Shown here piece after piece: positions 7,379 through 49,558 of a stretch of 64,000 bases of DNA. The stretch spans positions 8,799-72,798 of the forward strand of contig JAFXTB010000048.1 in the NCBI GenBank assembly GCA_017525225.1, given 5' to 3'. Numbering within the stretch: the stretch's first letter is position 1; every line of letters starts with the position of its first letter. The position numbers and the translations under genes are program-made. The notes under the pieces are model-generated. The model searched no databases and was not told where the DNA came from. It worked only from the letters and a program-made list of their open reading frames with translations. Origin of the DNA: Kiritimatiellia bacterium. Its GTDB lineage: Bacteria; Verrucomicrobiota; Kiritimatiellia; RFP12; UBA1067.

Positions 7379-7402
7379 GTCTGAAAGGTTTGTTTCGGCT
7401 AG

Positions 7403-7436
7403 CCAACTAACCAACTACCAACAAACCAACTACCAA
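7403..7436 (+). repeat. CCAACTA direct repeats (x4, imperfect) in the leader of the aldolase gene
   Basis: ccaactaaccaactaccaacaaaccaactaccaa read directly. C/A-rich, no SD nearby except a weak AGGAA. Confidence 0.6.
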
Positions 7437-31209: not shown

Positions 31210-32106
31210 ATGAAAACCAAGAAACTTGAAGGGTTGGTCGCAGCGGCGCATACGCCGTTCGCGAAGGACGGTTCGGTGGACGTGGATCAGGTGCCCCGCC
31301 AGGCGGCGGCGCTCCTGAAGCAGAAGGTGATCGGCGCATACGTGTGCGGCACCACGGGCGAGGGCATATCCTGCTCTGTCGAGGAACGCAAGGCTGTGAT
31401 GGCGGCCTGGGCGCGCGCGGCGAAGGGGAAGCTCTTCCTCATCGCACACACGGGCGCGCTCGGCCTCACCGACGCGCAGGAGCTGGGGGCGTACGCCGAG
31501 GAGCTCGGATATGACGCCGTATCGGTGGTGCCGGCAAACTACTTCAAGCCTGGCTCCGTAGCGACGCTCGTCGACTACCTCAACGCCGCGCTTGAAGGCT
31601 GCCGCAATACGCCGTTCTACTACTACCACACCGGCATGAGCGGAATCCATCTCGACATGCAGCAGTTCCTCGAGAAGGCCGACGGCCGCATCCCCAACCT
31701 TGCCGGCATCAAGTTCAACTATCCCGACCTCTACATGTACCAGCGCTGCATGCGCTGCTGCGGCGGCAAATACGACATCACGTGGGGGATCGACGAATGG
31801 TTCGCTGGCGCAGTGGCCTGCGGCGCGAAGAGCGCCATCGGCTCCACATACAACTACGCCGCCCCGATATACACCCGCATAGCCGAGGCCGTGCGAAAGG
31901 GCGACCTGAAGGCGGCCGAGAAGGGCATGAAGAAGGTGTGCGACATCGTGGACATCCTCGTGCAGTACGGCGGCGTGGCCGCCGGCAAGACGATGATGGC
32001 CGTGCACGGGATGGACCTGGGCGACGTTCGCCTGCCGTGCGTGCCGCTTACGGCGGCGCAGAAGGCCGACTGCATCGCGCGACTCCGCAAGATAGGCTAC
32101 CGCTGA
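31210..32106 (+). CDS. N-acetylneuraminate lyase / dihydrodipicolinate synthase-family aldolase
   Basis: GTTGEG motif, Schiff-base lysine context AGIKFNYPD, 299 aa. Context: downstream of SGNH esterase, with sialidase and mutarotase-symporter nearby. Confidence 0.7.
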   Translation: MKTKKLEGLVAAAHTPFAKDGSVDVDQVPRQAAALLKQKVIGAYVCGTTGEGISCSVEERKAVMAAWARAAKGKLFLIAHTGALGLTDAQELGAYAEELGYDAVSVVPANYFKPGSVATLVDYLNAALEGCRNTPFYYYHTGMSGIHLDMQQFLEKADGRIPNLAGIKFNYPDLYMYQRCMRCCGGKYDITWGIDEWFAGAVACGAKSAIGSTYNYAAPIYTRIAEAVRKGDLKAAEKGMKKVCDIVDILVQYGGVAAGKTMMAVHGMDLGDVRLPCVPLTAAQKADCIARLRKIGYR

Positions 32107-32123
32107 CAACCGGGGAGGTGACC

Positions 32124-34804: not shown

Positions 34805-34811
34805 CGAACCC

Positions 34812-36302
34812 ATGGAACGGACGACGCGAATCATGATCTCCACGGCCATGCTGGCGGCCGCCATCACCTGCGGAGCATCTGCCGCTCGGGCGGCCGGAGC
34901 GTCCATCGCGGGCGACTGCGCCGTGTTTTCGCCGGATGGCGGACGCATCGCCTTCCAGCGCGAGCGCGGCGACGCATTCGACCTTGTGGTGCGCGACCTG
35001 TCCACCGGCGAGGAGACGCTGGTCGAGAAGGGCGGGAAGGTGATCGCGGGCCAGCCGGCGTGGGGGCCGGACGGCTCGCTCGCCTACGTAATGATGCCCG
35101 CCACCAACACCGCGTACGAGGCGGCGGTCGCCAAGAGCGAGGACGGAAGCAACCTGTGGCTGTGGAAGGACGGCGCCAGGCGCCGGATCACCTGGGGGCG
35201 GGTGCACGATTCCACGCCGTCGTTCGGTCCGGACGGACGCATATACTTCGCCTCGGCCTGCGGCTACGCGCAGAGAAAGGCCGGCACGCCCGCCCTGTTC
35301 GTCGTCGATCCCCGCGAGGCCAGGCCGGAAAGGAAGATGATATACTTCGCCCCGAACGCGCGTACGATATGCGTGTCGACGGGCGTCTCGCAGCCCTCCG
35401 TCTCGCCGGACGGCAAGCTGCTTGTCTGGACCGAGATCAACGCCCTGGACGACGTATGGCACATCTGCATCGCCAGGCTCTCGGATCCGGCCGGCACGAT
35501 GCGCCGCCTGACGCCTTTCGCCATGTGGGCGTATTCGCCCCGCTGGTGCCCCGACGGCCGGCACGTGGTCTTCACCGGGTTCAACGCCGGGGACGATGGG
35601 TGGGGAGTGCATGTGGCCGATGCGCGTACCGGGGCGATCAAGCGCCTCTTCCCGGGCGAAGAGCCGTCCCTTTCCGCCGATGGGCGGCGCATCGTCTTCA
35701 CGCGCGACGCGTCGCTGAGGTTCGCGGACGTCACGCCGGACACGTTCACCTTCCGTGCCGGGGATTCCCGCTCCCAGCCCTGGGACGAGCCGGAGCGGTT
35801 GCTGCTTGCGAAGACGAACATGACGAATTCGATGTCCGCAGCCCTCGGGGACGACTTCAAGTTCGGCAGCGACCGCACGTTCTTCGTGCGGGCGGAGTTC
35901 GACTATGACGGGGACATCTCGAAGAACCACGACATCGTCCACGGCATCTACAAGGAGAGCCATATCGGATTCCACCTCTATCTCATCAAGGGTACGCCGA
36001 ACTTCGGCACGCGCTACCCGGACAACAGGCATCTGCATATATGCTCCAACGGCAAGTTCAAGGACCGCCACGGCATGCTGACGGGCATTCGCACCAAGGA
36101 CGCCATCTACCTGTACGTCGAGGGTGGCGGGTTCTACTCCAAGGGCCTGGGCAAAGGGGCGATCGCCCTCGACCATCCGATCCGCGTCGAGGTAGGCAAC
36201 GCGCTTTCCGGTTCGGTCAGTCTCGTGCGAAAGCTCGATATCGGAACCGGGTGGCCTGTGAACGTGCCAAAGCCATTTGCTGGAGAGGAGCTGTTCAAAT
36301 GA
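34812..36302 (+). CDS. PD40/TolB-like beta-propeller protein (cassette copy 2)
   Basis: About 65-70% identical to 32124..33614 by eye (AVFSPDGGRIAFQRERGD..., same C-terminal FFVRAEFDYDGD block). Confidence 0.65.
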   Translation: MERTTRIMISTAMLAAAITCGASAARAAGASIAGDCAVFSPDGGRIAFQRERGDAFDLVVRDLSTGEETLVEKGGKVIAGQPAWGPDGSLAYVMMPATNTAYEAAVAKSEDGSNLWLWKDGARRRITWGRVHDSTPSFGPDGRIYFASACGYAQRKAGTPALFVVDPREARPERKMIYFAPNARTICVSTGVSQPSVSPDGKLLVWTEINALDDVWHICIARLSDPAGTMRRLTPFAMWAYSPRWCPDGRHVVFTGFNAGDDGWGVHVADARTGAIKRLFPGEEPSLSADGRRIVFTRDASLRFADVTPDTFTFRAGDSRSQPWDEPERLLLAKTNMTNSMSAALGDDFKFGSDRTFFVRAEFDYDGDISKNHDIVHGIYKESHIGFHLYLIKGTPNFGTRYPDNRHLHICSNGKFKDRHGMLTGIRTKDAIYLYVEGGGFYSKGLGKGAIALDHPIRVEVGNALSGSVSLVRKLDIGTGWPVNVPKPFAGEELFK

Positions 36303-37531
36303 AAACCTTGCATTCATCCGGGGAACTTACGGCGGCAAGGCGTTTCGCCCGTGCATCGCGCATGGCGTTCGCGGCGGCGCTTGCCGTGGCGGCGCTGCCG
36401 GCAAGCGGCCTCTACAGGGCCGCGCTCGTCGACAGCTTCGACTTCGCCCGCGTCTTCGACTGCGAGACGAAGAAGGGGTCCGAGCAGATAATCGCGCACG
36501 TCCTCTCGCACGGCGGCAACGCGGTGTGGTGGAGGTCCAACGGCGGGGCCATCCAGCGCTATCCCAGCAGGTTCGAGACGGGGGCTGCCCTGAACAGGCC
36601 GTTCAACAAGCTGCTGCCGCCCGACGAGCGCGAGTTCTACGGATGGCTGCGGCTCGACCGCGGCGAGACGAACCTGATAGCGCACGTCCTCGGCTACTGC
36701 CGCGAGCACGGCATCCCGAGCGGCATCCATACGGCCTACGAGGAAAACCACAACAGCATAAAGTGGATAGGCGGATGGAACTCCCGCCATCCGCAGTACT
36801 GGTCGCGCACAAGGAAGGGCATCCCATGGCCGGGGAGGACGTCCATGATGTTCCCGGAGGTGTTCGAGCGCAAGGTGAAGATGATGTGCGAGCTGCTGGA
36901 CATGGAGCCGGAGTGGCTCTTCCTGGACATGTGGCGCTGCTGCTGGTCGCTCGTATACGAGTATGTGGAGCCTATGTGCGCGGCATGGCGCGAGAAGTAC
37001 GGATGCGAGCCGCCGGAAGACCCGCAGGATCTCCGCTGGGTCGCGCTCTTCGAGCCGGTCCAGACGGCGTTCTTCCATGCGATCAGGCGCGAGATAGCGG
37101 CGCGCGGCAGCAAGACGAAGTTCTGCATAGGACTGCCGTACATGACGCCCGAAGAGGACATCAACTACAAGAGGCTCGGGCTCAACTGGCGCCAGCTCGC
37201 GGCCGACGGAACGGCCGACGCGCTCGCGGTGATGTGCGTACGCCTGCCGAAGGACGCGAAGGGTGAGGCCGTATGGGAGGCGACGCGCGCCGCGTACAGG
37301 CACGTCTACGAAAACCGGGGCAAGGCGGAGGTGTTCTACCATTGCAGCATGTATGACGGCGGCCAGGTTTGCATTCCGGCCTACCGCAAGCGTACGGGTC
37401 TTTCCAACGGCGAATGCGCCAAGCGCTTCCTCGACCTCGCCGAGGAATTCGGCGGCAAGGGCGTGGTGCTGGAGTGCGTGGACTACGGAAACTATCCAGA
37501 CGATGTCGTGAAGGAACTGAACAAGAGGTGA
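36299..37531 (+). CDS. putative glycoside-hydrolase-like secreted protein (cassette copy 2 partner)
   Basis: ATGA overlap. Close paralog of 33611..34804 (LYRAALVDSFDFARVFDCETKKGS..., EPEWLFLDMWR). Confidence 0.55.
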   Translation: MKTLHSSGELTAARRFARASRMAFAAALAVAALPASGLYRAALVDSFDFARVFDCETKKGSEQIIAHVLSHGGNAVWWRSNGGAIQRYPSRFETGAALNRPFNKLLPPDEREFYGWLRLDRGETNLIAHVLGYCREHGIPSGIHTAYEENHNSIKWIGGWNSRHPQYWSRTRKGIPWPGRTSMMFPEVFERKVKMMCELLDMEPEWLFLDMWRCCWSLVYEYVEPMCAAWREKYGCEPPEDPQDLRWVALFEPVQTAFFHAIRREIAARGSKTKFCIGLPYMTPEEDINYKRLGLNWRQLAADGTADALAVMCVRLPKDAKGEAVWEATRAAYRHVYENRGKAEVFYHCSMYDGGQVCIPAYRKRTGLSNGECAKRFLDLAEEFGGKGVVLECVDYGNYPDDVVKELNKR

Positions 37532-37650: not shown

Positions 37651-37699
37651 GAAGGTTGTGAAGGTTGTGAGGGTTGTGAGGGTTGAGAAGGTTGTGAAA
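37651..37699 (+). repeat. 5 x 9-bp tandem repeat GARGGTTGW immediately upstream of the RBS of giant gene 1
   Basis: gaaggttgt gaaggttgt gagggttgt gagggttga gaaggttgt read directly. ATG at 37714. Confidence 0.8.
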
Positions 37700-37713: not shown

Positions 37714-40700
37714 ATGAAGACGATACGGACTCTTGAGGCGTCAAGGGGAGTGAAGGGTTTTGCAATGCTGGCCCTTCTTGCATCAATTTCGCTTCCCGGC
37801 GCGTTGCATGGCGCCAACTACACCTACACCTGGACCTGGACCGGCAATGGCGACGGCATTACCTGGTCGGACGGCGGCAACTGGACATGTTCCCCGTCCG
37901 GAGCGGCGTACGAATACCCGTCCACGGTGGAGGACTTTGTCAAGTTCAACTCGAAAGTCGGCGGCGGACTCGTGGTGACGTCTCGTCTGGATGAAGCCGT
38001 GACGATATATGGAATCCTGCAGAGCGGTTCCGACCCGTTGCTGCTTACCACGACCAACGATTCGCAATTGACGTTCAGCATACATTCCGGGGGCGATGTC
38101 GAGTCGATGTACGACGGTGTGTGCGTCGATCAAGGCTCGACGCTCTACCTGGACGTCCCCATCGTGATGGATAGACGTTTCGACAAATGGGGTGGTGGTA
38201 CGGTCTACTGGCAGAGGAGCTTCGTGAACGGAGTCAATACCTCGTCGGCGAGGTACAACTTTATAGGAGGTGCCGGGACGAACTTCCTCGTCGGAAACTT
38301 CTCTTTGACGGGGGGAAGCAAGATGGATTCCAACTTCGGGTTTGGCGCCGACGTCGGGAAATGGACGTATTTGTACGTGCAGGACAACGCATCGCTGGAA
38401 TGCTACAGACTGAAGCTGGGCACGAGCCGTTCGGCACCCAACATATTGTTCAGGCAGGATGGCGACGGTACCAGGGTCGTGGCAAGCGACTTTCTTGGAA
38501 TAGGCAATTTCACGGATGGAAATCACAATGACTGGAGTACGTCCGTATACCACATGGTGCGGGGGACTCTTTCGGCATCGTACATGAACCTCGCGCCAGG
38601 GCGACCGGGACGCTACGTACAGGATGGCGGTACGGCCACGGTGTCATACGTCTCGTGTGGCGCGGAAGTAAGATCGTATGGATCGTTCGAGTTGAATGGC
38701 GGGCGGTTCGTAGACACCTCGGGCGACTCTTCCGCAGACATGTTCTGCTCCATTTCGTCCCCCAGATTCGACGTGTCTCTTACAGGCGGCACGCTGGCAT
38801 TCACGGGCGAGCCTGTGATCAGGCGGCGCCTCCGCCTTTCAGGTTCGCCTTCGATAGAGATGGCATCGGGCAAGGCGGTGCAATTCCGCGCGGCGCCCGA
38901 CATCGCCGCCGGAACATCGCTGACGAAGACTGGTCCGGGAACGATGAGGATCATGACGGATTTCCCGGCGGTCGGGTCGTTAACGGTGGAGGAAGGGGCT
39001 GTCTATCTGGGCTATAGCAACGCCTCGCAGCGGTACGGGGTCTATGGCGCGTACGACGACTATACGCCGTGGCATGTCAAGATCAAGAATGGCGGCTTGC
39101 TCGGCTGGCATGAAGCGACGACCTCGATCACCTCGTACTTCTACCAGCCGATGGATCTCGATATCGATGACGGTGGATGCTTCAGCTTCTACTCCCACCG
39201 TACCGCGGCGTTCGCGCATTCTCTCACTGCGAACGGCGTCAAGGTGGCTCGCGGCGTGTATCGCGCCACCAAGACCGGTCACATCAGATGTTCTGGAACC
39301 GAGAATATCGCCCACATGATAGTGCCCTACACCTGGACTGGTGGTGGCGACGGGGTGTCGTGGACCGATACGGCGAACTGGGAGGACGGAGCCGTGCCTC
39401 CGAACGTCAGTGCATCAGACTTTAATGTGCCATACGCCGACCTCTCCCGCGCCACCAACATCACATTCACCTCCAACATCACCATCGGCGGCATCCTCTA
39501 TTCGCCAAACGGCGCCAACAAGAGGCTCGTCATCTCCAGCGACACGGCGACCTTGAAGCTGGCCCCTCCAAACTACCAGATTTCCTGCCAGATACGCCCT
39601 GATGCTACGCTTGAATTCGACTGCAAGGTCGCGCGTTACAAGACGTGCGGACTTGTCGGCAACGGCACGTACGTCTTCCGCCGGAACATCCCTGGGGCGT
39701 TCCTGAAAAAGACCGGATTCGACAATGACTTCATGCTGTCCCTCGTGGTCGACGGCACGTTGATCCTCCGTGGCGTGAAGGAGTGTATTCCTGAAAGCTC
39801 GAACCACACCACGGCGCTCGGATTCCACTCAAACCAGTCGGGAAGCGAATCGACGATCGTCTTCGAGGGTGAAGATACCGACTTCGCCCTGAACTACCTG
39901 TTTTTCTCCAGGGGCGGGTACACGGGCATGAACCGCTACATCCAGCGCGACGGGGCGAAGCTCACGGTGACGAACTTCTGCGTGAACACGCATCGTACCG
40001 AGCAGGAACCGAAGCGGTACTACCTGCAGGGCGGCACGCTTACATGCGTGGAAGGGCTGTTCCTCAACACGAACCTGAGCTCCACGGTCTCTTCCTGCAA
40101 CCGCGTGCCGGGCGGCAGCTTCGAAATGACGGGCGGCACGCTCACGACCCCGCAGATCGGGAGCGAGTGCCTGCAGAACTGGTGCTATCTCAACGGCGGC
40201 GACGCATACGTGGGAGCTGGCGGCATATCGCGGACGTGCTGCACGAACGGCTATGGCGGGATGGACAAGCAGTACCAGAGCCAGAGTGCCTACAATCTGA
40301 AGACCGGCGAGATCCTCTACAACACCACGCCGTCGCTACAGCTGGGCGGGGTGAACCTGCATGCCTCGGCCGACTTCTCTGTTACGCTGGACACCGCCTT
40401 CAGCGGCGTGGGCGGAGCGACTACGATCGATACCGCCGGGCACGACATAACGTTCGAGGGCTGCGTACTTGCCGGGACCGGCGGCTGGCGCAAGATCGGA
40501 GAAGGAACCCTTTACCTCAACGGCACGAACAGCTTCACGGGCGCGATGTCCGTGGAGGCGGGCACGGTCGTCGTAGGGGCGGAGGCCGTGAACGAATCCG
40601 CTCCGGCGAGGCTTGAACTTGCCTCCGCCTCTTCCCTCTCGCTTCCCGCGGGAGCGGCGTGGACGGTCGAGACGCTGATCGTGGGCGGGGTCCGCAAGGC

Positions 40701-42060
40701 CGCCGGCGAGAGCGTTACGGTTGGCGAAGGCACGGTGACGGTGGTGCAGCCTGCCGCACTCGCCGCAGGCCGCTGGATCGGCCCTGCCGCAGGCGGCGAC
40801 TGGTTTGCGCCGGCCAACTGGTCCGACGGCGTCGTCCCCAATGCGGAACGCGTCACGGTGGATCTTGTCAATACATCCCTGGCCGACGGCGCGCAGCTGT
40901 CGATAGGCTCCGATCTGATCCTTGGCGGAATGTCGGTGGAGATGCCCGGCACGGTGACTCTTTCCGCCGCAGGCGATGTGCGGCTGGTCCTTACCAATGC
41001 AACCCTGAATGTCTCGCCGGAGACGACCCTCGTCATAGACATCCCGGTGGTCGTAGGCAAGTCGCCATCCACCGTCTCTGGCGGCAAGACTGTCATACAG
41101 ACGAAGCCGCTCGTCCTTACCGGCGGCGGGAAGGTGGTGTTCGCGCGCGATGTCGTCAACCAGGACGGCACCTTCAATCTCAACGGCTACCACCATCTGA
41201 AAACGGCTGTCGGCATGCAGGTGGAGTTCCGCGGCTTGCTATGGGGCGTTATGCTCCAGGCATCTTCGTCGCAATGGCAGACGGACTGCACCGAACTCAC
41301 GGCGGCGGATGGCTCAATGATCAATCTGGCGGCAACGCCCATAACCTCCGGTTTCGTCAAGCTGACTCAGTCGGGCGGAACCGTCACGTTCACGAACTCG
41401 GTGATATTGGTGGAGAAAGAGAATACCCGCTACGACCATGTGCTGAATTCCGGCGAACTTCTGCTTCCGAACGGCAATACGCTGGATGGAGGATTTGGCA
41501 ATTGCGCGAAGCTGGAGCTAAACGGCGGCACGGTGAAGACGTCTGGCTACGGGATTTCCTTTGGATATGGACTGCCTACATGGCTTGGCGGGGCGGTTGC
41601 GTTCGCGCAGTCGGATGCGGAGACGGATTCGACGTTCGCCTGTCCGTTCCAGGGTGAAGGAAGCGTGACGCAGCAGGGTCCGGGACGCATCACCTTCACA
41701 GGGGGGATGCCGAACGCCGGTGCGTTTGCCGTCCAGGGCGGAACGCTTGCGCTTAAGTGTCTGGCTGCTCCGACGAACCTTGTCGTCGGGGCGGGCGTGC
41801 TTGCGATAGACGAGGTGGCGGCGGCAGGAATGTCCTCCGGCGCCGCATCGCTGCACATAACCCGCAAGAGCACGCTTGAACTGGATTTCGATGGAGAGCT
41901 TGTGGTGCGGGAACTCTTCCTCAACGGAGTCCACAGGTCTGCCGGCCTCTACGACGACGGAACGCTCTACGACACCACCATCGCGCCGAACATCCGTGGA
42001 AGGGGCGTGCTGCGCGTGCTGGAAGGCTTCGGCCCCGGCCTGCAGCTGTTTGTGAGGTGA
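37714..42060 (+). CDS. giant secreted PATR-type (autotransporter-associated beta-strand repeat) surface protein, 1448 aa (giant 1)
   Basis: Signal peptide. N-terminal YTYTWTWTGNGDGITWSDGGNWTC and internal IVPYTWTGGGDGVSWTDTANWEDGAVPPN repeats. Long Gly/Thr/Asn-rich beta-helix-like sequence. C-terminal tail GVLRVLEGFGPGLQLFVR. Confidence 0.75.
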   Translation: MKTIRTLEASRGVKGFAMLALLASISLPGALHGANYTYTWTWTGNGDGITWSDGGNWTCSPSGAAYEYPSTVEDFVKFNSKVGGGLVVTSRLDEAVTIYGILQSGSDPLLLTTTNDSQLTFSIHSGGDVESMYDGVCVDQGSTLYLDVPIVMDRRFDKWGGGTVYWQRSFVNGVNTSSARYNFIGGAGTNFLVGNFSLTGGSKMDSNFGFGADVGKWTYLYVQDNASLECYRLKLGTSRSAPNILFRQDGDGTRVVASDFLGIGNFTDGNHNDWSTSVYHMVRGTLSASYMNLAPGRPGRYVQDGGTATVSYVSCGAEVRSYGSFELNGGRFVDTSGDSSADMFCSISSPRFDVSLTGGTLAFTGEPVIRRRLRLSGSPSIEMASGKAVQFRAAPDIAAGTSLTKTGPGTMRIMTDFPAVGSLTVEEGAVYLGYSNASQRYGVYGAYDDYTPWHVKIKNGGLLGWHEATTSITSYFYQPMDLDIDDGGCFSFYSHRTAAFAHSLTANGVKVARGVYRATKTGHIRCSGTENIAHMIVPYTWTGGGDGVSWTDTANWEDGAVPPNVSASDFNVPYADLSRATNITFTSNITIGGILYSPNGANKRLVISSDTATLKLAPPNYQISCQIRPDATLEFDCKVARYKTCGLVGNGTYVFRRNIPGAFLKKTGFDNDFMLSLVVDGTLILRGVKECIPESSNHTTALGFHSNQSGSESTIVFEGEDTDFALNYLFFSRGGYTGMNRYIQRDGAKLTVTNFCVNTHRTEQEPKRYYLQGGTLTCVEGLFLNTNLSSTVSSCNRVPGGSFEMTGGTLTTPQIGSECLQNWCYLNGGDAYVGAGGISRTCCTNGYGGMDKQYQSQSAYNLKTGEILYNTTPSLQLGGVNLHASADFSVTLDTAFSGVGGATTIDTAGHDITFEGCVLAGTGGWRKIGEGTLYLNGTNSFTGAMSVEAGTVVVGAEAVNESAPARLELASASSLSLPAGAAWTVETLIVGGVRKAAGESVTVGEGTVTVVQPAALAAGRWIGPAAGGDWFAPANWSDGVVPNAERVTVDLVNTSLADGAQLSIGSDLILGGMSVEMPGTVTLSAAGDVRLVLTNATLNVSPETTLVIDIPVVVGKSPSTVSGGKTVIQTKPLVLTGGGKVVFARDVVNQDGTFNLNGYHHLKTAVGMQVEFRGLLWGVMLQASSSQWQTDCTELTAADGSMINLAATPITSGFVKLTQSGGTVTFTNSVILVEKENTRYDHVLNSGELLLPNGNTLDGGFGNCAKLELNGGTVKTSGYGISFGYGLPTWLGGAVAFAQSDAETDSTFACPFQGEGSVTQQGPGRITFTGGMPNAGAFAVQGGTLALKCLAAPTNLVVGAGVLAIDEVAAAGMSSGAASLHITRKSTLELDFDGELVVRELFLNGVHRSAGLYDDGTLYDTTIAPNIRGRGVLRVLEGFGPGLQLFVR

Positions 42061-42108
42061 GGTTGAAAAGTAGAAAGGTTGAAAGGTTGAAAAGTTGAAA
42101 GGTTGAAA
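42061..42108 (+). repeat. 6 tandem copies of GGTTGAAA(A) immediately after the giant-1 stop
   Basis: ggttgaaaag tagaaa ggttgaaa ggttgaaaa gttgaaa ggttgaaa read directly. Confidence 0.8.
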
Positions 42109-42174
42109 TTCCGCCGTCCGCGCTGGCGCTGGAATGTAAATGAGGATAAGTTTAATGAGGCAGTCGCAAAACCC

Positions 42175-42247
42175 GGTAGGGCGGTCGCCCCGCGACCGCC
42201 GCGGGCGGCGCGGGGCGCCGTCCCTACCATGTGTGCGCGGGGTTTTT
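42175..42247 (+). terminator. GC-rich imperfect long inverted repeat (GGTAGGG...CCCTACC, about 54 nt) followed by CGCGGGG-TTTTT: candidate rho-independent terminator of giant 1
   Basis: Arms 42175-42181 / 42222-42228 with extensive internal complementarity. T5 at 42243-42247. Confidence 0.5.
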
Positions 42248-42248
42248 G

Positions 42249-42340
42249 CAATTGCCTCAATTGTTCACAAGTTTCCAATCTCAATTTGTATTTGTGACAA
42301 TGGTGGCATTTGTGAACAATTGAGATTTGTGAACATTCAA
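42249..42340 (+). promoter_or_regulatory. AT-rich island with iterated ATTTGTGA(A)CAA motifs (3 direct, 1 inverted) and three CAATTG palindromes: candidate multi-site regulator-binding region or promoter for 42388
   Basis: TTGTTCACAA 42261-42270 (inverted). TTTGTGACAA 42291-42300, TTGTGAACAA 42310-42319, TTGTGAACAT 42327-42336 (direct, 17-19 nt apart). Confidence 0.4.
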
Positions 42341-42387
42341 GTTACAGGCAAGGTTGAAAAGTCAAACGAGAACAAGATGGAGCAGAG

Positions 42388-43851
42388 ATGAAACTTGAAG
42401 CAATGGTTGCAAGTGTGGTGACCATATCCTTTGCCGCCGCACCCGACCCAATCGAGAATGCGAGCGCCGGCGTGTTCTCGCCCGATGGCCGGTATCTGGC
42501 GTTCGAGAGGCAGGACGGCTGGGACAGGCATCTGGGCGTAATGGACCTAGAGTCGCGAAAGGTGGAATGGGTGGAGAACGGCCCTGGTCTCGCGGGGCTT
42601 GCAAGCTGGGGGAGTGATGGATCGCTTGTCTATACCGCAGGGAATGTGACGAACACCGCGTTCGCGGGCGAGCGGCTGAAGTCCGAGGACGGCTTCGGCA
42701 TCCGCATCTGGCGGCGCGGAAAGGGCGTGCGCGAATTCACGAAAGGCCGCCGCCGCGATGCCACGCCATCCTTTTCGCCCGACATGAAGACCCTGTACTG
42801 GGTTTCCCCGGAAGGCAACACGCAGCATCGGCTCGCGCAGATATACATGTGGTCTGCCCCGGTGGACGCGCCGGAGCGACGCAGGCGCATCCTGACCCAG
42901 CAGATGCACTACATCGACGCCAGCGCGAACCAGCCGCAGGTGTCGCCGGATGGAAGGCTGCTCGCCTGGGCGCATCTCGACAGCATCCGCGACCGCTGGG
43001 GCATCAGGGCGGCGGCGATAGGCGATCCGAACCACAACGTGCCGATCACGGAGCCGGAGGCATCCGCATTCGAGCCTCGATGGAGCGCGGACGGCCGCTA
43101 TCTCGTATACACGGCGTTCAAGGACGGCGATCCCACATGGTGCTGCTACATCCAGGAACTGTCCTCCGGCGCGACCCGCAACCTGGGTCCCGGGCGCGAA
43201 CCCTGCCTTTCACCGGACATGCGCACTCTGGTGCGCACGCTTGACGGCAGGCTCGTTTTCACCCCGCTTTGCGCGAACGACCTGCCGCACGGGCCGAAAG
43301 TCGGTGCGGACCACCCGTCGCACGAGGCTGAGAAGGTGTTCTTCTCCGAGCGTCCGGTCGCAAGACGCCATTTCAGCGCAAAGGCCACCAGTGGCTTCGT
43401 TCTCGGCGCAGGGCGCACGTTCTTCGTCCGGACCAGGATCAGATGGACCGGCAAGCCGTTCAGCGGCGATGCGACCGTCATATCCGCCAAGTACGACGAG
43501 TGCTCCCAGGTCGCATTCCGCCTGGTGATGCAGGATTCTGTGCCGAACTTCTGGTGGCTCAACCGCGACAGGCAGGCCGTCCGCGTGCCGATGCCTGGAC
43601 CGCTGGAACCGGGCGAGCACGAGATCACCGCGGTACGCACCGCCACCGTCGTGTATCTGTCGGTCGACGGCTCCGAACCTATTCTGCAGCAGATGCGCGA
43701 AGGCCATCTGCCGCTCGACCATCCCCGGGGGATGGGGACGGGATCTATCTTCGAGCGCGACGACGACAAGCGTGTGCTCTCCATCGAGGTGGGTACAGGC
43801 TGGCCGGTCAACGTTCCGAAACCTGCAACCAGAAGGGATCTGCTGTCATGA
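42388..43851 (+). CDS. PD40/TolB-like beta-propeller protein (cassette copy 3, more divergent)
   Basis: VFSPDGRYLAFERQDG, SPDMKTLYW, VSPDGRLLAW, WSADGRYLVYTA. C-terminal GTGWPVNVPKP block shared with copies 1 and 2. GGAG SD. Confidence 0.65.
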   Translation: MKLEAMVASVVTISFAAAPDPIENASAGVFSPDGRYLAFERQDGWDRHLGVMDLESRKVEWVENGPGLAGLASWGSDGSLVYTAGNVTNTAFAGERLKSEDGFGIRIWRRGKGVREFTKGRRRDATPSFSPDMKTLYWVSPEGNTQHRLAQIYMWSAPVDAPERRRRILTQQMHYIDASANQPQVSPDGRLLAWAHLDSIRDRWGIRAAAIGDPNHNVPITEPEASAFEPRWSADGRYLVYTAFKDGDPTWCCYIQELSSGATRNLGPGREPCLSPDMRTLVRTLDGRLVFTPLCANDLPHGPKVGADHPSHEAEKVFFSERPVARRHFSAKATSGFVLGAGRTFFVRTRIRWTGKPFSGDATVISAKYDECSQVAFRLVMQDSVPNFWWLNRDRQAVRVPMPGPLEPGEHEITAVRTATVVYLSVDGSEPILQQMREGHLPLDHPRGMGTGSIFERDDDKRVLSIEVGTGWPVNVPKPATRRDLLS

Positions 43852-45071
43852 TGCGACATGAATGCACGCTGCTTTGCGCACTCGCGCTGGCACTGGCAAC
43901 GGCCGATGGCAGGGCCGCCTCGCCGAGGTGCCCGCATGAAGCCACGCCCCGCTTCGAGAAGATCGCGCTCATCGACAGCTACGACTTCGTCAGGTATTTC
44001 GACTGCGAGACGAAGACCGGCACCGTGCAGGTGGTGGAGAACGTCGCCGGGCAGGTAGGCGCGACGCATCTTCTCTGGCGTCACCAGACAGGGGGCATCC
44101 CGCGCTATCCTTCGGCGGAGGAATCGAGCGTTATCCATCGGATGCCATTCGAGAAGCGGGTCGTGGAGGTAAACAACATCCACGGATGGAGCGATCTCGC
44201 CAAGGGCGAGACGAACCTGCTGGCGTACGCGATCGAGCAGATAGCCGCGCACGGATTCGTGGCGGGGATACATCATACATGGGAGGAGAACCACTTCCAG
44301 AGCCGCACATGCAGCCAGTGGAACCTGGACCATCCCGAATACTCCACCAGGTCGCTGCACGGCATAGCAAGGCCGGGCTACACGAGCTCGCTTGCATACG
44401 AGGAGGTGCTGGCGCACAAGCTCCGCCGCTTCGATGAGGTGCTTTCCACCGGACCTTCCATGATCTACATCGACATGTGGCGGCAGGGCGGATGGTACGC
44501 GAGGCTGGAATACGTTAAGCCGATGTGCGACCGCTGGCGCAGCCGCTACGGCTGCGAACCGCCCGAGGATGCGTCCGACGAAAGATGGCTCGCGCTCGTG
44601 GCGGAATGCAACCATCGCTACATCAGGGCGATGCGCGCGCGCATGGACGCGACCGGCCGCCCGATGCAGCTAGTGCTCGGGATCCCGTACTGCGACCTCG
44701 AAGACAAGGAGCTATGGCGGCGCTATGCAGTGGACTGGAAGGCGCTTGCGGCCGACGGCACCGTGGATGCCATCTCGGTGATGAGCGTCAGGCCGGACGA
44801 GAAGCGCATCTGGGATTCCACCCGGGAGATATACGAATACGTCTACCGCAACCGAGGCAGGGCCAAGGTCTACTTCCCGGTGTCGCAGTACAACTTCACC
44901 TTCGGCATCCCCTCGTACTGCAAGGCGACAGGCCTCAAGGGCGAAGAGGTCGCCGCAAGGCTTCTCGATCTCGCCGCATCGTGCGGCGGGGCCGGCGTGA
45001 CGTTTGAATGCGTGGACATGTACAACTATACCGATGCCATGCGCGAAGTCATAAGGAGGTTCCACAGATGA
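43848..45071 (+). CDS. putative glycoside-hydrolase-like secreted protein (cassette copy 3 partner)
   Basis: ATGA overlap. Paralog of 33611 and 36299 (IALIDSYDFVRYFDCETKTGTVQ, GETNLLAYA, YIDMWRQGGW, TFECVDMYNY). Confidence 0.55.
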   Translation: MMRHECTLLCALALALATADGRAASPRCPHEATPRFEKIALIDSYDFVRYFDCETKTGTVQVVENVAGQVGATHLLWRHQTGGIPRYPSAEESSVIHRMPFEKRVVEVNNIHGWSDLAKGETNLLAYAIEQIAAHGFVAGIHHTWEENHFQSRTCSQWNLDHPEYSTRSLHGIARPGYTSSLAYEEVLAHKLRRFDEVLSTGPSMIYIDMWRQGGWYARLEYVKPMCDRWRSRYGCEPPEDASDERWLALVAECNHRYIRAMRARMDATGRPMQLVLGIPYCDLEDKELWRRYAVDWKALAADGTVDAISVMSVRPDEKRIWDSTREIYEYVYRNRGRAKVYFPVSQYNFTFGIPSYCKATGLKGEEVAARLLDLAASCGGAGVTFECVDMYNYTDAMREVIRRFHR

Positions 45072-45100
45072 AGAGGGCCTCGTTGTCATAGGCCTTGGAA

Positions 45101-45127
45101 TTGACAGGGGGAAAGAAATCGTATAAT
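45101..45127 (+). promoter_or_regulatory. sigma70-like promoter TTGACA-15-TATAAT upstream of giant gene 2
   Basis: TTGACA 45101-45106, TATAAT 45122-45127. ATG 45161. Confidence 0.4.
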
Positions 45128-45160
45128 ATACGCATAACAACCCAAGAAAGGTAGAAATCC

Positions 45161-48100
45161 ATGGCAACAGGAAAAGCACTCAATGGAAAGCCGCATGCGG
45201 GAAATCCGCACGTACGGTTTGATGAGGGGGGAGTCGTACCGTCGGCAACGCCGAGGCGTGGGTCTCTACTCTACAAGAATGTTGAGGCGTTGCGGAGCGC
45301 AAGGGGCGCCATGCTTGCCCTGTTTGCGTCGTTTTCGTTTGTCGGCGCGTTGCATGGCGCCAACTACACCTACACCTGGACCTGGAACGGCAATGGCGAC
45401 GGCGTGACCTGGACGAACGGAAGCAACTGGACATGTTCCCCTGCCGGAGCGGCGTACGAATACCCGTCCACGGTCGAGGACATAGCCAAGTTCAACTCAA
45501 AAGTCGGCGGCGGGCTCGTGGTGACGTCGCGTCTGGACAAGGCCGTGACGCTATATGGAATCATGCAGAGCGGTTCCGATCCGGTTGTGTTGACCACGAC
45601 GAACAATTCGAGCCTTGCTTTTGGCCTGCGTTCGGGAGCGGTCGTGGCGATCGACTACGATGGAATCGTGGCGAAGGCCGGCACTACGCTCTATCTGGAC
45701 GTACCCATAGTGATGAACCAGCGCTTCGACCGCTGGGGCGACGGCACGGTGGTATGGTCGCACAGCATATCCAACGGCCTCGACAAGACCGGCACCTACA
45801 TGAGCAATTTCTTCGGCGGCAACGGTACGAACATCTTCACAGGCGACTTCACGTTTCTGGCTAACGCCAGTTCCGCTTACTCTTTCGGATATGGGGGGAA
45901 GCCCGGCAGGTGGGCGTATTCGATCCAGCAGGACAACGCCTCGTTCTCGACGAAGGAGCTGAAGGTCGGCAACAGCAGGTCGTGCCCCAACGCCGTGTGG
46001 CGGCAGGATGGCGATGCCACCATCACCTCGGTCACGAACCTCTATGTCGGCAACAACACGGATACGGACGACTGGAGCACGTCCGTCTATCACATGGTGC
46101 GCGGAACGCTTTCTGCCTCATCGAAGCTGAATCTGGGCAATGGCCGCCCCGGGTATTTCGTGCAGGACGGTGGAACCGCCACGGTGGCGATGGTGGAATG
46201 CGGCACGGGCGCGCGTTCGTACGGAGGTCTCGAGGTACGGGGCGGAAGGTTCGTGATGAACGGCACGATGGACTTCGGAAAGGAGGGGAGGTTCGACTTC
46301 ATCCACAGCGGCGGCACGTTCGTCGTCCCGGTCGCCTTGACGCTCAACGACACGGTGAAGCTTTCGGGCTCCCCAACGCTCGAAGTCGCGTCCGGAAAGA
46401 GCCTGACGCTTCGCCGTTCGCCGCAGATCGCCGCAGGCACTTCGTTGACGAAGACCGGCGCCGGCAAGGTCTACATACAGGCCGACGTGCCGGCACGGGG
46501 ATCGCTGACGGTTGCCGAAGGCGAGATCGCGATCGGCAACGGCGGCGCCTATACGGACCGCATGGGCATACTGGGCGCGTACGACGACTACGAGCCCTGG
46601 CAGGTGACGATCAAGAACGGAGCGTCGCTGGGCTGGCAGTCATCCGGCTATTCCATAACCGCGTACTACTACAAGCCCATGGATCTCAACATCGAGGATG
46701 GCGGGCGGTTCTACTTCCACAACCACCGTACGGCGGCGTTCGCGCACTCCCTCGTGACGAACGGCGTGGCGCTTCCGCGCGGCACATACACCACGGCTCC
46801 CAACTCCCCGCTATACAGTACCAGCGAAAAAGGTCTCTCACATATGATCGTGCCGTATACGTGGACGGGCGGCGGCGACGGGACCACCTGGACAGATCCC
46901 TTGAACTGGGAGGATGGCGCCGTGCCGCCGAACAATGCGACAGGGTCGGAAAGCGGGGTGTTCGCCGACCTTTCGCGCGCCACGAACATAACGTTCTCGG
47001 CGAACATAGCCATAGGCGGCATCCTCTATGCCCCATGCGGCGCCAATAGGCGGCTTGTGATCTCCAGCCAGACTGCCTCCTTCAAGCTCGACCGTGCCAG
47101 CTACCATACGTCCTGCATGGTCGTGCCCGATGCGACGCTCGAGTTCGACTGCAAGGTGTTGCGCCGGGCCACTGTCAGCATGGTGGGCAACGGCACGTTC
47201 GTATTCGACAGATATGTCCTGGGGTCCACGCTCGCGGCCAGCGGGTTCAATAATAACTACATGCCGATATTCTGCATCGACGGTACCGTCATATACCGCA
47301 ACGCGACGGAGTTCACGCGCTTCGACGAGAGTTCGTCCTACCGCCGGGCGGTCGCATGGCACGCCAACCAGTCCGGTTCCGAGGCTCGCATCATATTCGA
47401 GGGCGAGGATACCGATCTTGAATACGATCTGTTCATGTGGTCGCGTGGTGGCTATACGAGCGCCAACTGGGTGTACCAGCGCGGAGGGGCGAACATCACG
47501 GTCTCCAACTTCTGCATGAACACATGCCGCAATGATGGACAGAAACCACAGCGCTACTATCTGCAGGATGGTACGCTCACATGCGTGGAGGGCATCTATC
47601 TGAACAAGAACGTGGCGGATGGCGTCTCGTGCTGCCAGAACTATCCGGGAGGGGACTTCGAGATGACAGGCGGCACGCTGACCACTCCGCTGATGGGCAG
47701 CGAATGCCTGCAGAACTGGTACTATCTGAATGGCGGCGATCTCTACATCGGCGCGGGTGGCATCGTGCGCACGTGCGATACGCGGAACTATGCCCCGACC
47801 GATTCCAAGACGAAGGGCGCGTACGATGCGACCACCGGTCTGCCTCTCTACAACACCACGCCGTCGCTCCAGCTTGGCGGCGTAAGGCTGCATGCGACGG
47901 CCGACTTCTCCGTCTCGCTCGATACCGCCTTCAGCGGCAAGGGCGGTGCGACGACTATCGATACCGCCGGTCACGACATAACGTTCGAAGGATGCGTCCT
48001 GACTGGTACCGGCGGCTGGCGCAAGATCGGCGAAGGCACCCTCTACCTCAACGGTACCAACAGCTTCACGGGCGCGATGTCCGTGGAGGCGGGCACGGTG

Positions 48101-49558
48101 AGCATCGGCGCAGGCGCCGTGAACGAAGCCGTCCCGGCGAGAATCGAACTCGCCTCCGCCTCCTCGCTCTCGCTTCCTGCAGGTGCGGCCTGGACGGTCG
48201 AGACACTGATCGTGGGCGGGGTCCGCAAGACTGCCGGTGAAAGCGTGACGTTCGGCGAAGGCTCGGTGACGGTGGCGCAGCCTGCAACGCTCGCCGCAGG
48301 CCGCTGGATAGGCCCTGCCGCCGGCGGCGACTGGCTCGCGACGTCCAACTGGTCCGATGGCGTGATACCCAACGGCAAGACGGCGTCCGCGGATCTCAAG
48401 GGCACGTCGCTGGCGGATGGGGCCCGGATCACGTTCGCCTCGGACATCGTTCTCGGCGGGCTTGATGTGGACGTCCCCGGGACGATAACGCTCGCAGCCA
48501 CGGATGGCGCGTGCATACTTCTCACCAATGCCACGGTGACCGTCTCGCCGGAGACGACGCTCGTGTTCGACTCGCCTGTGGTGGTGGGTGCGTCGAAGAA
48601 CGGCAACAGTCCCGTGTATGTGGCTGGCGGCGGCAGGGTGGTGTTCGCAAAGGAGGTCCTCGACCAGGTCGGCGCCAGCTCCAAGCATCGCATGATGGTG
48701 GATGATGGCACGGTGGCCGAATTCCGCGATCAGCTGCAGGGCGTGACGCTCGAGGCCAGGTCCGCGCACTGGCAGACGTCCTGGGCGGACATCATTGTCG
48801 CCGAAGGCGGGGATTTGAATCTTGCAAATAGCGTGCTTGCGGGTGGCGCCGTACGCATGACGCAGACCGGCGGCAAGGTCGCCGTGACCAACTCGTTCGT
48901 CCTTGCCGGGGCTTGCAGCACGCAGACGCGCTGCTACCACACGCTCGATTCGGGCGAGCTGCTTGTGGCAAACGGCTGTACTCTTGGCGGCGGATGGACA
49001 GGTGACATGCGGCTGTATCTCAATGGCGGTGTTATCAAGACGTCCGGCCAGGGCACGGCGTTCAAGTCAGACCTGCTGGTGACGCTGGGGGGCGCCGTCA
49101 CATTCACGCAGGCTGACGCCAAGACCGATTCGAGATTCGACAACGACTTCTACGGAGAGGGGAGCATCACGCAGGCGGGGCCGGGCCGCGCCACGTTCAC
49201 AGGCATCCAGTCGGCCGTCACGTCGTACACGGTCCTGGGCGGAACGCTGGCGATACAGGGTGCGGCGGCGGCCACGAACCTGACCGTCACGGCAGGCACT
49301 CTGTCCGTGGGCGGGGCGGCTGCGGCCACGATCCCGCCGACCGCTTCGCTGAGCCTCCGGCGCACAGGTAAGCTCAACCTCGATTTCGACGGCGAACTCG
49401 TAGTACGCAAGCTTCGCGTAGGTAGCTACAGCATGGCGGCGGGCATATACGACGACGGCACGCGCTACACCACACCGCTTTCGCAGTACATCACGGGACC
49501 CGGCGTGCTGCGCGTGCTGGAAGGCCACGGCCCCGGCCTGCATCTGTTTGTGAGGTGA
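45161..49558 (+). CDS. giant secreted PATR-type surface protein, 1465 aa (giant 2, paralog of giant 1)
   Basis: Same architecture and long near-identical stretches to giant 1. C-terminal tail GVLRVLEGHGPGLHLFVR. Confidence 0.75.
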   Translation: MATGKALNGKPHAGNPHVRFDEGGVVPSATPRRGSLLYKNVEALRSARGAMLALFASFSFVGALHGANYTYTWTWNGNGDGVTWTNGSNWTCSPAGAAYEYPSTVEDIAKFNSKVGGGLVVTSRLDKAVTLYGIMQSGSDPVVLTTTNNSSLAFGLRSGAVVAIDYDGIVAKAGTTLYLDVPIVMNQRFDRWGDGTVVWSHSISNGLDKTGTYMSNFFGGNGTNIFTGDFTFLANASSAYSFGYGGKPGRWAYSIQQDNASFSTKELKVGNSRSCPNAVWRQDGDATITSVTNLYVGNNTDTDDWSTSVYHMVRGTLSASSKLNLGNGRPGYFVQDGGTATVAMVECGTGARSYGGLEVRGGRFVMNGTMDFGKEGRFDFIHSGGTFVVPVALTLNDTVKLSGSPTLEVASGKSLTLRRSPQIAAGTSLTKTGAGKVYIQADVPARGSLTVAEGEIAIGNGGAYTDRMGILGAYDDYEPWQVTIKNGASLGWQSSGYSITAYYYKPMDLNIEDGGRFYFHNHRTAAFAHSLVTNGVALPRGTYTTAPNSPLYSTSEKGLSHMIVPYTWTGGGDGTTWTDPLNWEDGAVPPNNATGSESGVFADLSRATNITFSANIAIGGILYAPCGANRRLVISSQTASFKLDRASYHTSCMVVPDATLEFDCKVLRRATVSMVGNGTFVFDRYVLGSTLAASGFNNNYMPIFCIDGTVIYRNATEFTRFDESSSYRRAVAWHANQSGSEARIIFEGEDTDLEYDLFMWSRGGYTSANWVYQRGGANITVSNFCMNTCRNDGQKPQRYYLQDGTLTCVEGIYLNKNVADGVSCCQNYPGGDFEMTGGTLTTPLMGSECLQNWYYLNGGDLYIGAGGIVRTCDTRNYAPTDSKTKGAYDATTGLPLYNTTPSLQLGGVRLHATADFSVSLDTAFSGKGGATTIDTAGHDITFEGCVLTGTGGWRKIGEGTLYLNGTNSFTGAMSVEAGTVSIGAGAVNEAVPARIELASASSLSLPAGAAWTVETLIVGGVRKTAGESVTFGEGSVTVAQPATLAAGRWIGPAAGGDWLATSNWSDGVIPNGKTASADLKGTSLADGARITFASDIVLGGLDVDVPGTITLAATDGACILLTNATVTVSPETTLVFDSPVVVGASKNGNSPVYVAGGGRVVFAKEVLDQVGASSKHRMMVDDGTVAEFRDQLQGVTLEARSAHWQTSWADIIVAEGGDLNLANSVLAGGAVRMTQTGGKVAVTNSFVLAGACSTQTRCYHTLDSGELLVANGCTLGGGWTGDMRLYLNGGVIKTSGQGTAFKSDLLVTLGGAVTFTQADAKTDSRFDNDFYGEGSITQAGPGRATFTGIQSAVTSYTVLGGTLAIQGAAAATNLTVTAGTLSVGGAAAATIPPTASLSLRRTGKLNLDFDGELVVRKLRVGSYSMAAGIYDDGTRYTTPLSQYITGPGVLRVLEGHGPGLHLFVR

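Follow-up and report, generated by a model that had tools for sequence, protein, structure and literature searches.

An AT-rich array of repeated 10-mers upstream of a gene cassette of a Kiritimatiellia bacterium and its probable membership in a family of dispersed palindromic repeats

In a stretch of DNA from a Kiritimatiellia bacterium (contig JAFXTB010000048.1 of assembly GCA_017525225.1; hereafter the window, all 64,000 nucleotides of it, with positions counted from its first letter), a conspicuously AT-rich island of about 100 nt (42243–42345) carries four copies of a short palindromic motif. It is located just 3′ of the terminator-like hairpin of a giant gene and 52 nt 5′ of the next start codon. 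Does the island exist to control the genes that follow it? The original prediction for this locus held that it probably does: the array was taken to be a set of cooperative binding sites, with half-sites like those of the CRP/FNR family, that governs the third copy of a cassette beginning at 42388. We report here that the array is real, but that the island is probably a degenerate, open reading frame (ORF)-less copy of a family of palindromic repeats that is dispersed in Kiritimatiellae genomes and is related to cassettes carrying a gene of the PF05635 family.

The repeat island and its family

Each of the four motif copies listed in the prediction was found at its assigned position (S1 to S4 in Table 1), and together they conform to the general form TTGT(G/T)(A/C)ACAA. 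The start of S2 is separated from that of S3 by 18 nt and the start of S3 from that of S4 by 17 nt, in keeping with the predicted spacing of 17–19 nt, and S2 to S4 form an uninterrupted head-to-tail series whose units measure 18, 17, and 17 nt and share the consensus ATTTGTGAACAATTGAG. The claim of three direct copies and one inverted copy held in that S1 opposes the other three, but needed refinement: each copy is itself a small palindrome (TTGT-N1-2-ACAA), and its orientation resides only in the central GA/TC dinucleotide. The description of the array as iteron-like is upheld, and the array probably binds a protein or forms a structure.

The island is also AT-rich, as had been noted (67% AT), albeit in a background that is about 63% rather than 65% GC, and it contains the most AT-rich 80-nt segment of the entire window (an AT fraction of 0.675, as against a window median of 0.36). 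When the island itself was shuffled 2000 times with preservation of dinucleotides, its four copies of the 9-mer, counted at no more than one mismatch, were matched by 14 of the shuffled sequences. None matched a second feature, a perfect 15-nt inverted repeat (CTCAATTGTTCACAA at 42256–42270 and TTGTGAACAATTGAG at 42310–42324) with a spacer of 39 nt. This is the only perfect inverted repeat of 14 nt or more within 120 nt in the window, and three of the window's four TTGT-N0-4-ACAA palindromes are located in the island. Three CAATTG palindromes that had been singled out are indeed present, but not as a feature in their own right: the arms of the 15-nt inverted repeat account for two of them and the 3′ arm of the long hairpin upstream for the third, so that they are by-products of these arms, and the hexamer is not enriched in the window (seven observed versus 10.7 expected).

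The island matches sequences at other loci. A profile built from eight independent copies (116 positions; searched with nhmmer) matched the forward strand of the window from 42247 to 42349 with an E value of 1e-26 (90.6 bits; model positions 13–116 of 116). About 75 nt of the right half of the island are nearly identical to sequences in other metagenome-assembled genomes (MAGs), namely L082 and L086, the latter upstream of thiG. Intact copies of the family are about 105–120 nt long and carry the 10-mer TTGTTCACAA / TTGTGAACAA (with the variants TTGTCCACAA and TTGCCACAA) in two arrays that oppose each other, the 10-mers being spaced by 0, 7, or 9 nt. Their form is TTGTTCACAA-atNNcaattgNcacaa-TTGTTCACAA-at..caaat-(variable centre)-atttgtatttgtgRcaatgRtggcat-TTGTGAACAA-ttgagat-TTGTGAACA(A/T).

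Seen against this form, the window copy has a complete right arm (S2 to S4), whereas its left arm consists of S1 only, the outermost left 10-mer being absent; two left-arm motifs are present at 46 of the 78 unique family loci. The place of the missing 10-mer is taken by a GC-rich hairpin module (GCAAAACCC, stem, GGGTTTTGC; compare L129, L146, and L148). The same module flanks enclose different stems at L146, L172, and L193, where they are located at the center of the element, and L148 shows a related arrangement; the module is therefore a separate, nested unit. The window copy is about 103 nt in length, has no ORF, and retains the 15-nt perfect inverted repeat, as compared with the hairpins of 94–134 nt of its intact relatives. 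It also has both of the boxes that flank some members of the family: a left box (GGAATGTAAATGAGGATAAC, with up to two mismatches, 69–179 nt before the right arm), which was found at 12 of the 78 loci (L129, L133, and L214, for example), and a right box (AGTTATAGGCAAG, with up to three mismatches, 4–7 nt after the arm), which was found at 22.

The loss of an arm is reflected in folding. When folded, each of the 47 distinct full-length copies that lack an ORF gave one long hairpin (medians of 112 nt, −41 kcal/mol, and z = −6.1). For the window copy, folded as RNA from 42247 to 42337, the values were −28.3 kcal/mol and z = −3.1, the weakest hairpin of the family, in line with the absence of one of its outer arms. 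The 15-nt inverted repeat at 42256–42324 is a remnant of the family's long hairpin.

Dispersal of the family and its association with PF05635 genes

When one genome per species was scanned for TTGTTCACAA-N20-50-TTGTGAACAA, family matches were found at six or more loci in Kiritimatiellae MAGs and at four or more in rumen "RUG" bins, for which share of the scan we estimate a chance expectation of about 0.1 matches. Some genomes had several copies: at least three loci in RUG10619 and at least two each in RGIG4394 and RGIG10161. The 26-nt word of the right arm (TTGTGAACAATTGAGATTTGTGAACA) had 92 exact matches in metagenome contigs, representing about 78 unique loci, and no match in viral contigs.

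Copies of the family are found upstream of guaA, thiG, ackA, and many other genes, and their neighbors, which also include hisF, a GT2 gene, and an efflux pump, are functionally unrelated to one another. One copy (L042) is located between convergent genes and adjoins the 3′ end of a HisF-like gene, identified by reading the translation of the ORF; another (L048) overlaps the 3′ end of a gene; and a longer subfamily with additional outer inverted repeats occurs between convergent genes. Still other copies are found within genes. An element of 93 nt (L079, 4424–4516) is inserted in frame in the coding sequence of a GH5 protein. It falls within a hypervariable linker, the length of which is only three to four residues in the homologs P0033 and P0017, and protein P0011 carries the same element-derived peptide (...FVNNCGQLS...). 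Likewise, a half copy (LFTNLNCSQIANATNVNS) is in frame within a 2193-aa ORF at L202. By analogy, such in-gene copies behave as small selfish palindromic repeats do and not as operators. RPE and RU elements, too, are occasionally in frame within ORFs (PMC2759123, PMC3184786). The linker in question, which joins an N-terminal domain to the GH5 domain in this cellulase-family protein of the Kiritimatiellae, is a hot spot for unrelated insertions of 30–45 residues (alignment columns ~245–290), and P0012, P0021, and P0030 have other low-complexity inserts there.

A link to protein-coding cassettes emerged at L152/L194, where a 131-aa PF05635 gene ("23S rRNA intervening sequence protein," E = 1e-19) occupies precisely the space between two arms: the left one has TTGTTCACAA-ATG at its end, and the right one contains the 26-mer of the window copy. 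This arrangement was not peculiar to one locus: all six of the distinct PF05635 cassettes that we examined had matches to the family profile immediately beside the gene, with E values of 1e-10 to 1e-4 for the five further cassettes (P0143, P0170, P0145, P0148, and P0168). A search for relatives of the 131-aa protein yielded 534 at E ≤ 1e-15, many of them on very short contigs and one of them named as a Kiritimatiellae four-helix-bundle protein. The window itself contains no PF05635 homolog, as judged by tblastn.

The cassette of P0143 is inserted in a MacAB-like efflux operon, between the genes for the membrane-fusion protein and the ATPase, and an identical P0170 protein is encoded amid at least three different combinations of flanking genes. 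At the P0145 locus, three assemblies (L234, L235, and L236) have three, one, and at least two tandem palindromic copies after the gene, none of which has an ORF. The start of the ORF (~12 nt; ATGGTCTATACC -> atggtcaatacc) and the sequence following the stop codon are retained in these short copies, which for that reason look like internal-deletion derivatives. As judged by comparison of sequences, the family is abundant and recently active, given the differences in tandem copy number between samples, the identical cassettes in different flanks, and the in-frame insertions.

Some elements also appear to be part of messenger RNAs. The right arm at L152 is separated from the next ATG by only 10 nt, and the elements at this locus and in the MacAB-like operon of L215 are located inside operons with no room for a promoter of their own. 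The elements in operons of the L152 type must therefore, we infer, be transcribed, with the stem being formed in the mRNA. The 10-mer also repeatedly abuts start codons at the place expected for a Shine–Dalgarno sequence (L225, L240, and L152). In two of these instances, small called ORFs of 41 and 44 codons, dissimilar to each other, start at TTGTGAACA-ATG on the right arm that follows two different four-helix-bundle genes (L225, 1906–2031; L240, 1603–1737).

How might such elements work? The short copies would be internal-deletion derivatives of the cassettes that carry a PF05635 gene, and the family, mobile now or formerly, would behave in the manner of MITEs (transposable elements of the miniature inverted-repeat type). 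In design it would correspond to the intervening sequences of rRNA, in which an inverted-repeat stem encloses a loop that may or may not contain an S23p ORF. When a copy is transcribed within an operon, its arms would pair to form a long stem of double-stranded RNA, a plausible substrate for RNase III. In the DNA itself, the protein that moves or maintains the element probably recognizes the reiterated 10-mers; candidate readers are the element's own four-helix-bundle protein, DnaA, and a host regulator. Any effect of the window copy on the third cassette, such as a weak promoter activity, would be a by-product and not the reason for the existence of the sequence. More tentatively, the PF05635 genes bounded by TTGTTCACAA-type arrays and their ORF-less derivatives of ~110 nt could constitute a previously undescribed mobile class of "intervening-sequence-like" elements in the mRNA operons and reading frames of the Kiritimatiellae, with 10-mers bound by the elements' own four-helix-bundle protein or by DnaA and with arms that can be cleaved by RNase III.

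The closest known counterparts are the intervening sequences of rRNA genes, which have a terminal inverted-repeat stem and a loop with or without an S23p (PF05635) ORF, and whose stem is cut by RNase III (PMC4990558). They are regarded as selfish, but their origin and mobility are unknown, and the origin, function, and mobility of the intervening sequences and of S23p have been unsettled for over 25 years (PMC4990558). The elements in 23S rRNA come in a type that encodes S23p (Coxiella, Leptospira) and a type of ~100 nt without an ORF (Salmonella and others). The Kiritimatiellae family likewise has an inverted-repeat stem, a loop that is either short or occupied by a PF05635 ORF, and long and short forms. 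In contrast to intervening sequences, it is located between the genes of protein-coding operons, at the 3′ ends of genes, and in ORFs rather than in helix 25 or 45 of 23S rRNA; a 10-mer repeated in arrays makes up its arms, in place of a simple complementary pair; and it is present in many copies per lineage. There is no rRNA in the window, and the island is located between protein-coding genes. Unlike the ORF-bearing intervening sequences, the window copy lacks an ORF, and its stem is incomplete. Cleavage by RNase III is known for intervening sequences, whereas the likeness of the family to them is drawn from sequence.

The family also resembles MITEs and other small palindromic repeats (Correia elements of Neisseria, ERIC and RU-1 of enterobacteria, and RPE of Rickettsia) in being about 100–200 nt long, noncoding, palindromic, and intergenic, in the possible presence of promoter- or terminator-like parts, and in the frequency of nested and truncated copies. 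By description it is MITE-like (small, noncoding, bounded by inverted repeats, dispersed, truncated, and nested), but two defining features of MITEs that were looked for, a target-site duplication and a parent encoding a transposase, were not found. The only gene found between its arms is that of a four-helix-bundle protein, and such proteins are not known to be transposases. We found nothing specific on the 10-mer, on repeats of the Kiritimatiellae, or on stand-alone PF05635 cassettes as mobile units in the literature, our coverage of which was incomplete.

If these proposals are correct, the intervening sequences of rRNA would represent just one of the places in which a broader mobile family lands, and this family would offer many recent insertions from which to work out how such elements move. 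The window copy is ordinary for its lineage; the interest lies in the family as a route into the nature of intervening sequences and S23p-type proteins. It connects MITE-like palindromic repeats with the stand-alone PF05635 genes that are found between the genes of Kiritimatiellae operons, and it provides material for testing whether the elements move, what recognizes their arms, and whether they punctuate operon transcripts. The elements are also relevant to the annotation of Kiritimatiellae MAGs: they break assemblies, they fuse or extend ORFs, and they put spurious peptides (...FVNNCGQLS..., for example) into protein databases. As a decayed selfish repeat, finally, the island is unsuitable for inferring how the glycan-degradation cassettes are regulated.

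Alternative readings of the island

Several observations weigh against our view of the island. The family profile detected a single copy in the window and no second. The window copy shows no vestige of the start codon of a four-helix-bundle gene, and hence it is family membership alone that argues for its descent from a cassette. Target-site duplications were not seen at L042, L048, L079, L084, L086, or in the long subfamily, a weak negative given that the ends of the elements are uncertain. Nor was a transposase found between arm pairs in ~620 kb of family loci. (A search for arms situated kilobases apart, as in an autonomous transposon, returned only chance single 9-mers and neighboring extra copies.) Members of the family were gathered with exact-word anchors, a procedure that biases the apparent conservation of the motif and makes one arm invariant by design. 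The orientations of flanking genes, (+,+) in 20 cases, (−,−) in eight, convergent in eight, and divergent in two, are approximate, having been obtained from crude gene calls based on GC frame (GC3 > GC1 > GC2 being required); they resemble random intergenic placement, with no preference for promoter regions. Finally, about one-fourth of the copies have a conserved TATAGG-type box that faces the downstream gene, and many copies are located 10–60 nt before a start codon. Part of the family may therefore have a role as a promoter or leader.

The last of these points also speaks for the likeliest of the rivals, although we consider this rival improbable. It holds that the element is a functional promoter/operator module, in which the 10-mers are cooperative sites for a global or sugar-responsive regulator, such as a dimer of the GntR/FadR type, and the box at the right end (with TACAGG in the window and TATAGG in the family) is a −10-like element driving 42388–49558. 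TTGT-N-ACAA is typical of operators of the GntR/FadR family, and the island occupies the space that separates a terminator-like hairpin from the next operon; if the hairpin does terminate transcription, then the promoter for 42388 onward must be in or near the island. Direct reading of the sequence yields two weak −35/−10 candidates, TTGAGA(42320)-N17-TACAGG(42343) and TTGTGA(42292)-N17-AACAAT(42315). The best candidate found at the island by eye has only eight of 12 matches, however, and no σ70 promoter was found between 41800 and 42600 when we required TTGACA-N16-18-TATAAT with at least nine of 12 matches and with A2 and T6 of the −10 hexamer, whereas ordinary TTGnnn-N17-TATAAT promoters are visible elsewhere in the lineage. 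One of these, TTGTAA-N17-TATAAT, precedes the nearest homolog of the downstream gene (69% identity), which has no such array. Because the region upstream of this single closer homolog is unrelated to the island, orthology provided no footprint.

Neither TGTGA-N6-TCACA, the CRP site, nor TTGAT-N4-ATCAA, the FNR site, occurs anywhere in the window, even with spacers of N5-7, which agrees with the prediction's own remark that a full CRP site is lacking. The CRP-like half-sites of the island are in the order TCACA...TGTGA and are at least 23 nt apart. No gene for a regulator and no DNA-binding domain was detected among the 37 window ORFs that were scanned against Pfam. The copies found between genes that converge, those at the 3′ ends of genes, and those in frame within ORFs, the near-random spectrum of orientations with few copies in the divergent, promoter-rich gaps, and the lack of functional relation among neighboring genes all speak against the rival as well. 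Plasmid iterons and operator arrays do resemble the island in having direct units (of ~17 nt here), an inverted partner, and AT-richness, but the island has no adjacent rep or regulator gene, no CRP/FNR site, and no origin-like skew, and, unlike them, has been copied as an identical array to many unrelated loci. Thus, a purpose-built CRP/FNR-like operator was not borne out, nor was dedicated control of the third cassette. As a copy of a dispersed repeat, the island did not arise as the control region of the 42388 operon; it may have an incidental, co-opted effect on expression of 42388–49558.

Less probable still is a role at the RNA level in the window itself, in which the perfect 15-bp stem, in the leader of the 42388 operon, would serve as a determinant of processing or stability (an RNase III site or a 5′ stabilizer) and would have been selected at this locus for doing so. 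In its favor are the perfection of the stem, the z score of 42247–42337, the long hairpin of all intact family copies, the inferred transcription of the elements in the L152 and L215 operons, and the cleavage by RNase III of rRNA intervening sequences of the same design (PMC4990558). But the window copy, having lost an outer arm, forms the weakest hairpin of the family, and it is located 3′ of a strong terminator-like hairpin and so may not be transcribed from upstream. It matches no Rfam family, and a palindromic repeat in DNA can be folded on paper regardless of the importance of its RNA.

We regard as very improbable that the 9-mers are DnaA boxes, whether of a titration or reactivation site like datA or DARS, of a DnaA-regulated promoter, or of an origin. 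It is true that the island is AT-rich, that TTGTTCACA fits the relaxed consensus TT(A/T/G)TNCACA, and that it is one base removed from the actinobacterial TTGTCCACA, itself a variant within the family. Moreover, on a Burkholderiales chromosome TTGTTCACAA occurs ~1.4 kb from position 1 beside TTATCCAC and TTGTCCACAA, in an origin-like region with canonical boxes. The window has only four relaxed DnaA boxes, and two perfect ones are in the island. Compared with TTWTNCACA, which may not be the consensus of the Kiritimatiellae, S1, S3, and S4 match except for a G at position 3, and S4 has one additional mismatch. The cumulative GC skew rises monotonically through the region, however, and the genes on both sides are co-directional, from which it follows that the island is not an origin. 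No rep or dnaA gene was found among the window ORFs scanned, and dozens of near-identical complex copies per lineage, some of them intragenic, are unlike regulatory DnaA clusters.

The weakest rival, to which we assign a negligible probability, is that the array is a meaningless local minisatellite created by replication slippage: S2 to S4 are head to tail and 8–9-nt tandem arrays are common in the gaps of the window (7399–7436, 37651–37698, and 42060–42108), but the recurrence in other genomes, at ~78 metagenome loci, of the whole ~100-nt sequence with its nonrepeated spacers and boxes excludes an origin by local slippage.

The intergenic gap and its surroundings

The genes of the window are nearly all on the forward strand, and their Pfam matches point to functions in the catabolism of glycans and sialic acid. 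A set comprising a PD40-repeat gene, a gene of ~400 codons with no assigned function, and in places a "giant" gene of 1450–1500 codons with PATR repeats recurs three to four times. The gap at 42061–42387 (327 nt) is the largest break, and the only sizeable one, in this long co-directional array. It is a mosaic of octamers, left box, hairpin, island, right box, one further octamer, and GGAG-N5-ATG (Table 1).

Table 1. Features of the gap, the motif copies of the island, and other sites referred to in the text
Feature	Position	Strand	Remarks
S1, TTGTTCACAA	42261–42270	+	inverted copy; sole left-arm motif retained
S2, TTGTGACAA	42292–42300	+	right-arm motif, 9-nt variant; TTGTGRCAA at the same position in other copies
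S3, TTGTGAACAA	42310–42319	+	right-arm motif; first half of the 26-nt arm word TTGTGAACAATTGAGATTTGTGAACA
S4, TTGTGAACAT	42327–42336	+	outermost motif of the right arm
Six tandem C-free octamers, AGGTTGAA	42060–42108	+	immediately 3′ of the stop codon of gene 37714..42060
Left flanking box, GGAATGTAAATGAGGATAAG	42131–42150	+	family consensus GGAATGTAAATGAGGATAAC, one mismatch
GC-rich hairpin module: GCAAAACCC, GGTAGGG...CCCTACC stem, GGGGTTTTTGC	42156–42259	+	terminator-like, for gene 37714..42060
Right flanking box, AGTTACAGGCAAG	42340–42352	+	family consensus AGTTATAGGCAAG, one mismatch
Additional AGGTTGAA octamer copy	42351–42361
Shine–Dalgarno GGAG and ATG	42379–42382 and 42388–42390	+	start of PD40-repeat gene 42388..43851
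RF00029, group II intron domains V–VI	45186–45274	+	gathering-level Rfam match, 47 bits (cut-off 40)
10-mer pair, Verrucomicrobia, L038	6557–6598
10-mer pair, Verrucomicrobia, L090	4115–4155
10-mer pair, Verrucomicrobia, L111	6455–6496
10-mer pair, Verrucomicrobia, L114	7147–7187

The terminator-like GC hairpin noted in the prediction is real: 42156–42259 folds at −75.8 kcal/mol (z = −7.3), and the base of its stem is bordered by an A-run on one side and runs into GGGGTTTTT on the other. A terminator scan of 41800–42600 returned no match; the loop and stem limits of the scan miss a hairpin of this length, which was judged by folding instead. A search of the gap against Rfam at a permissive threshold returned no family, the only matches being chance-level ones to microRNAs and small nucleolar RNAs.

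The hairpin is reminiscent of repetitive extragenic palindromic (REP) sequences and of BIMEs in that it is a GC-rich imperfect palindrome following the end of a gene, with GGTAGGG at its start and CCCTACC at its end. REPs with a GTAG head have been described as a class (PMC3733652), and hairpins with a GGTAGGG-type head are also present at L197 and L148. Its stem of ~54 nt, however, is much longer than that of typical REPs. Another difference from REPs and BIMEs is that the flanking A-run and T-run make it look like a bidirectional terminator. There is no second copy in the window, and no RAYT gene was seen. The module to which the hairpin belongs recurs as GCAAAACCC, a stem that often has the form GGTAGGG...CCCTACC, and then GGGTTTTGCAATTGCC (L146, L172, L193, L148, and L197), and it looks like a REP-like unit or a portable bidirectional terminator.

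Other assemblies of the window locus are identical in sequence. Assembly L002, compared over its positions 1–290 with 41911–42200 of the window, agrees fully with the window starting at the apex of the GC hairpin and diverges upstream of that point, where it has a TPR-like ORF of ~50% GC that is cut in midframe. Rather than a true variant of the locus, L002 is most likely a chimeric scaffold that was joined at the hairpin.

Tandem arrays of C-free or G-free units of 8–9 nt, in intergenic leaders beside genes, are a recurrent feature of the window (AGGTTGAA six times, GAAGGTTGT five times, and CTAACCAA five times; 7399–7436, 37651–37698, and 42060–42108). Similar C- or G-poor arrays (GTGGCTAGT, GGTTTCTA, CCTCTAAC, and GGAGTTTG) follow palindromic elements at many related loci, and loci with such tandem arrays include L136, L156, L169, L146, and L213.

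The gene downstream of the island belongs to a pair that is conserved across the Kiritimatiellae: a PD40-repeat (Tricorn-like) gene of ~490 codons and, overlapping it, a gene of ~390–410 codons without a Pfam match. The pair occurs three times in tandem in the window (31782–37531 and 42388–45071) and elsewhere in otherwise different neighborhoods (L004, L007, and L008).

Farther downstream, the leader of giant gene 45161..49558 contains the match to group II intron domains V–VI listed in Table 1. The match includes a domain V close to the consensus (GAAAGCCGCAUGCGGGAAAUCCGCACGUACGGUUU) and stands alone, with neither a further intron domain nor a reverse transcriptase nearby. The annotated N terminus of the giant protein (MATGKALNGKPHAGNPHVRFDEGG...) is the translation of this match. 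Since homology to the first giant begins only after 45274, the true start is probably farther downstream, at an in-frame TTG or ATG. The most consensus-like pair of promoter hexamers seen in the window, TTGACA-N15-TATAAT at 45101–45127, is located in the 90-nt gap before this gene; its spacer of 15 nt is below the 16–18 nt allowed by the promoter scan.

The 10-mer pair is not confined to the family described here. Matches to Chloroflexaceae, which dominated the genome scan, proved to be a different, longer palindromic repeat that shares the pair and were set aside. This repeat, which contains TTGTTCACAA-N21-25-TTGTGAACAA, is present at more than 60 loci in the MAGs F17_50, F7_114, and SRR4030105_bin.95 (L011–L122), is flanked by cgcctccggcagggtggaaga... 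and ...gtaccatgctgccgcaggcgaa, and has no PF05635 gene nearby. In addition, TTGTTCACAA-N21-22-TTGTGAACAA is present in an otherwise GC-rich region in four Verrucomicrobia MAGs (Table 1). At L038 and L090 the pair is located just upstream of a gene whose product has the N terminus MYLKNLTVLGFKSFADKT... and appears by eye to be SMC-like. The pair in the Verrucomicrobia may be a conserved operator that uses the same 10-mer.

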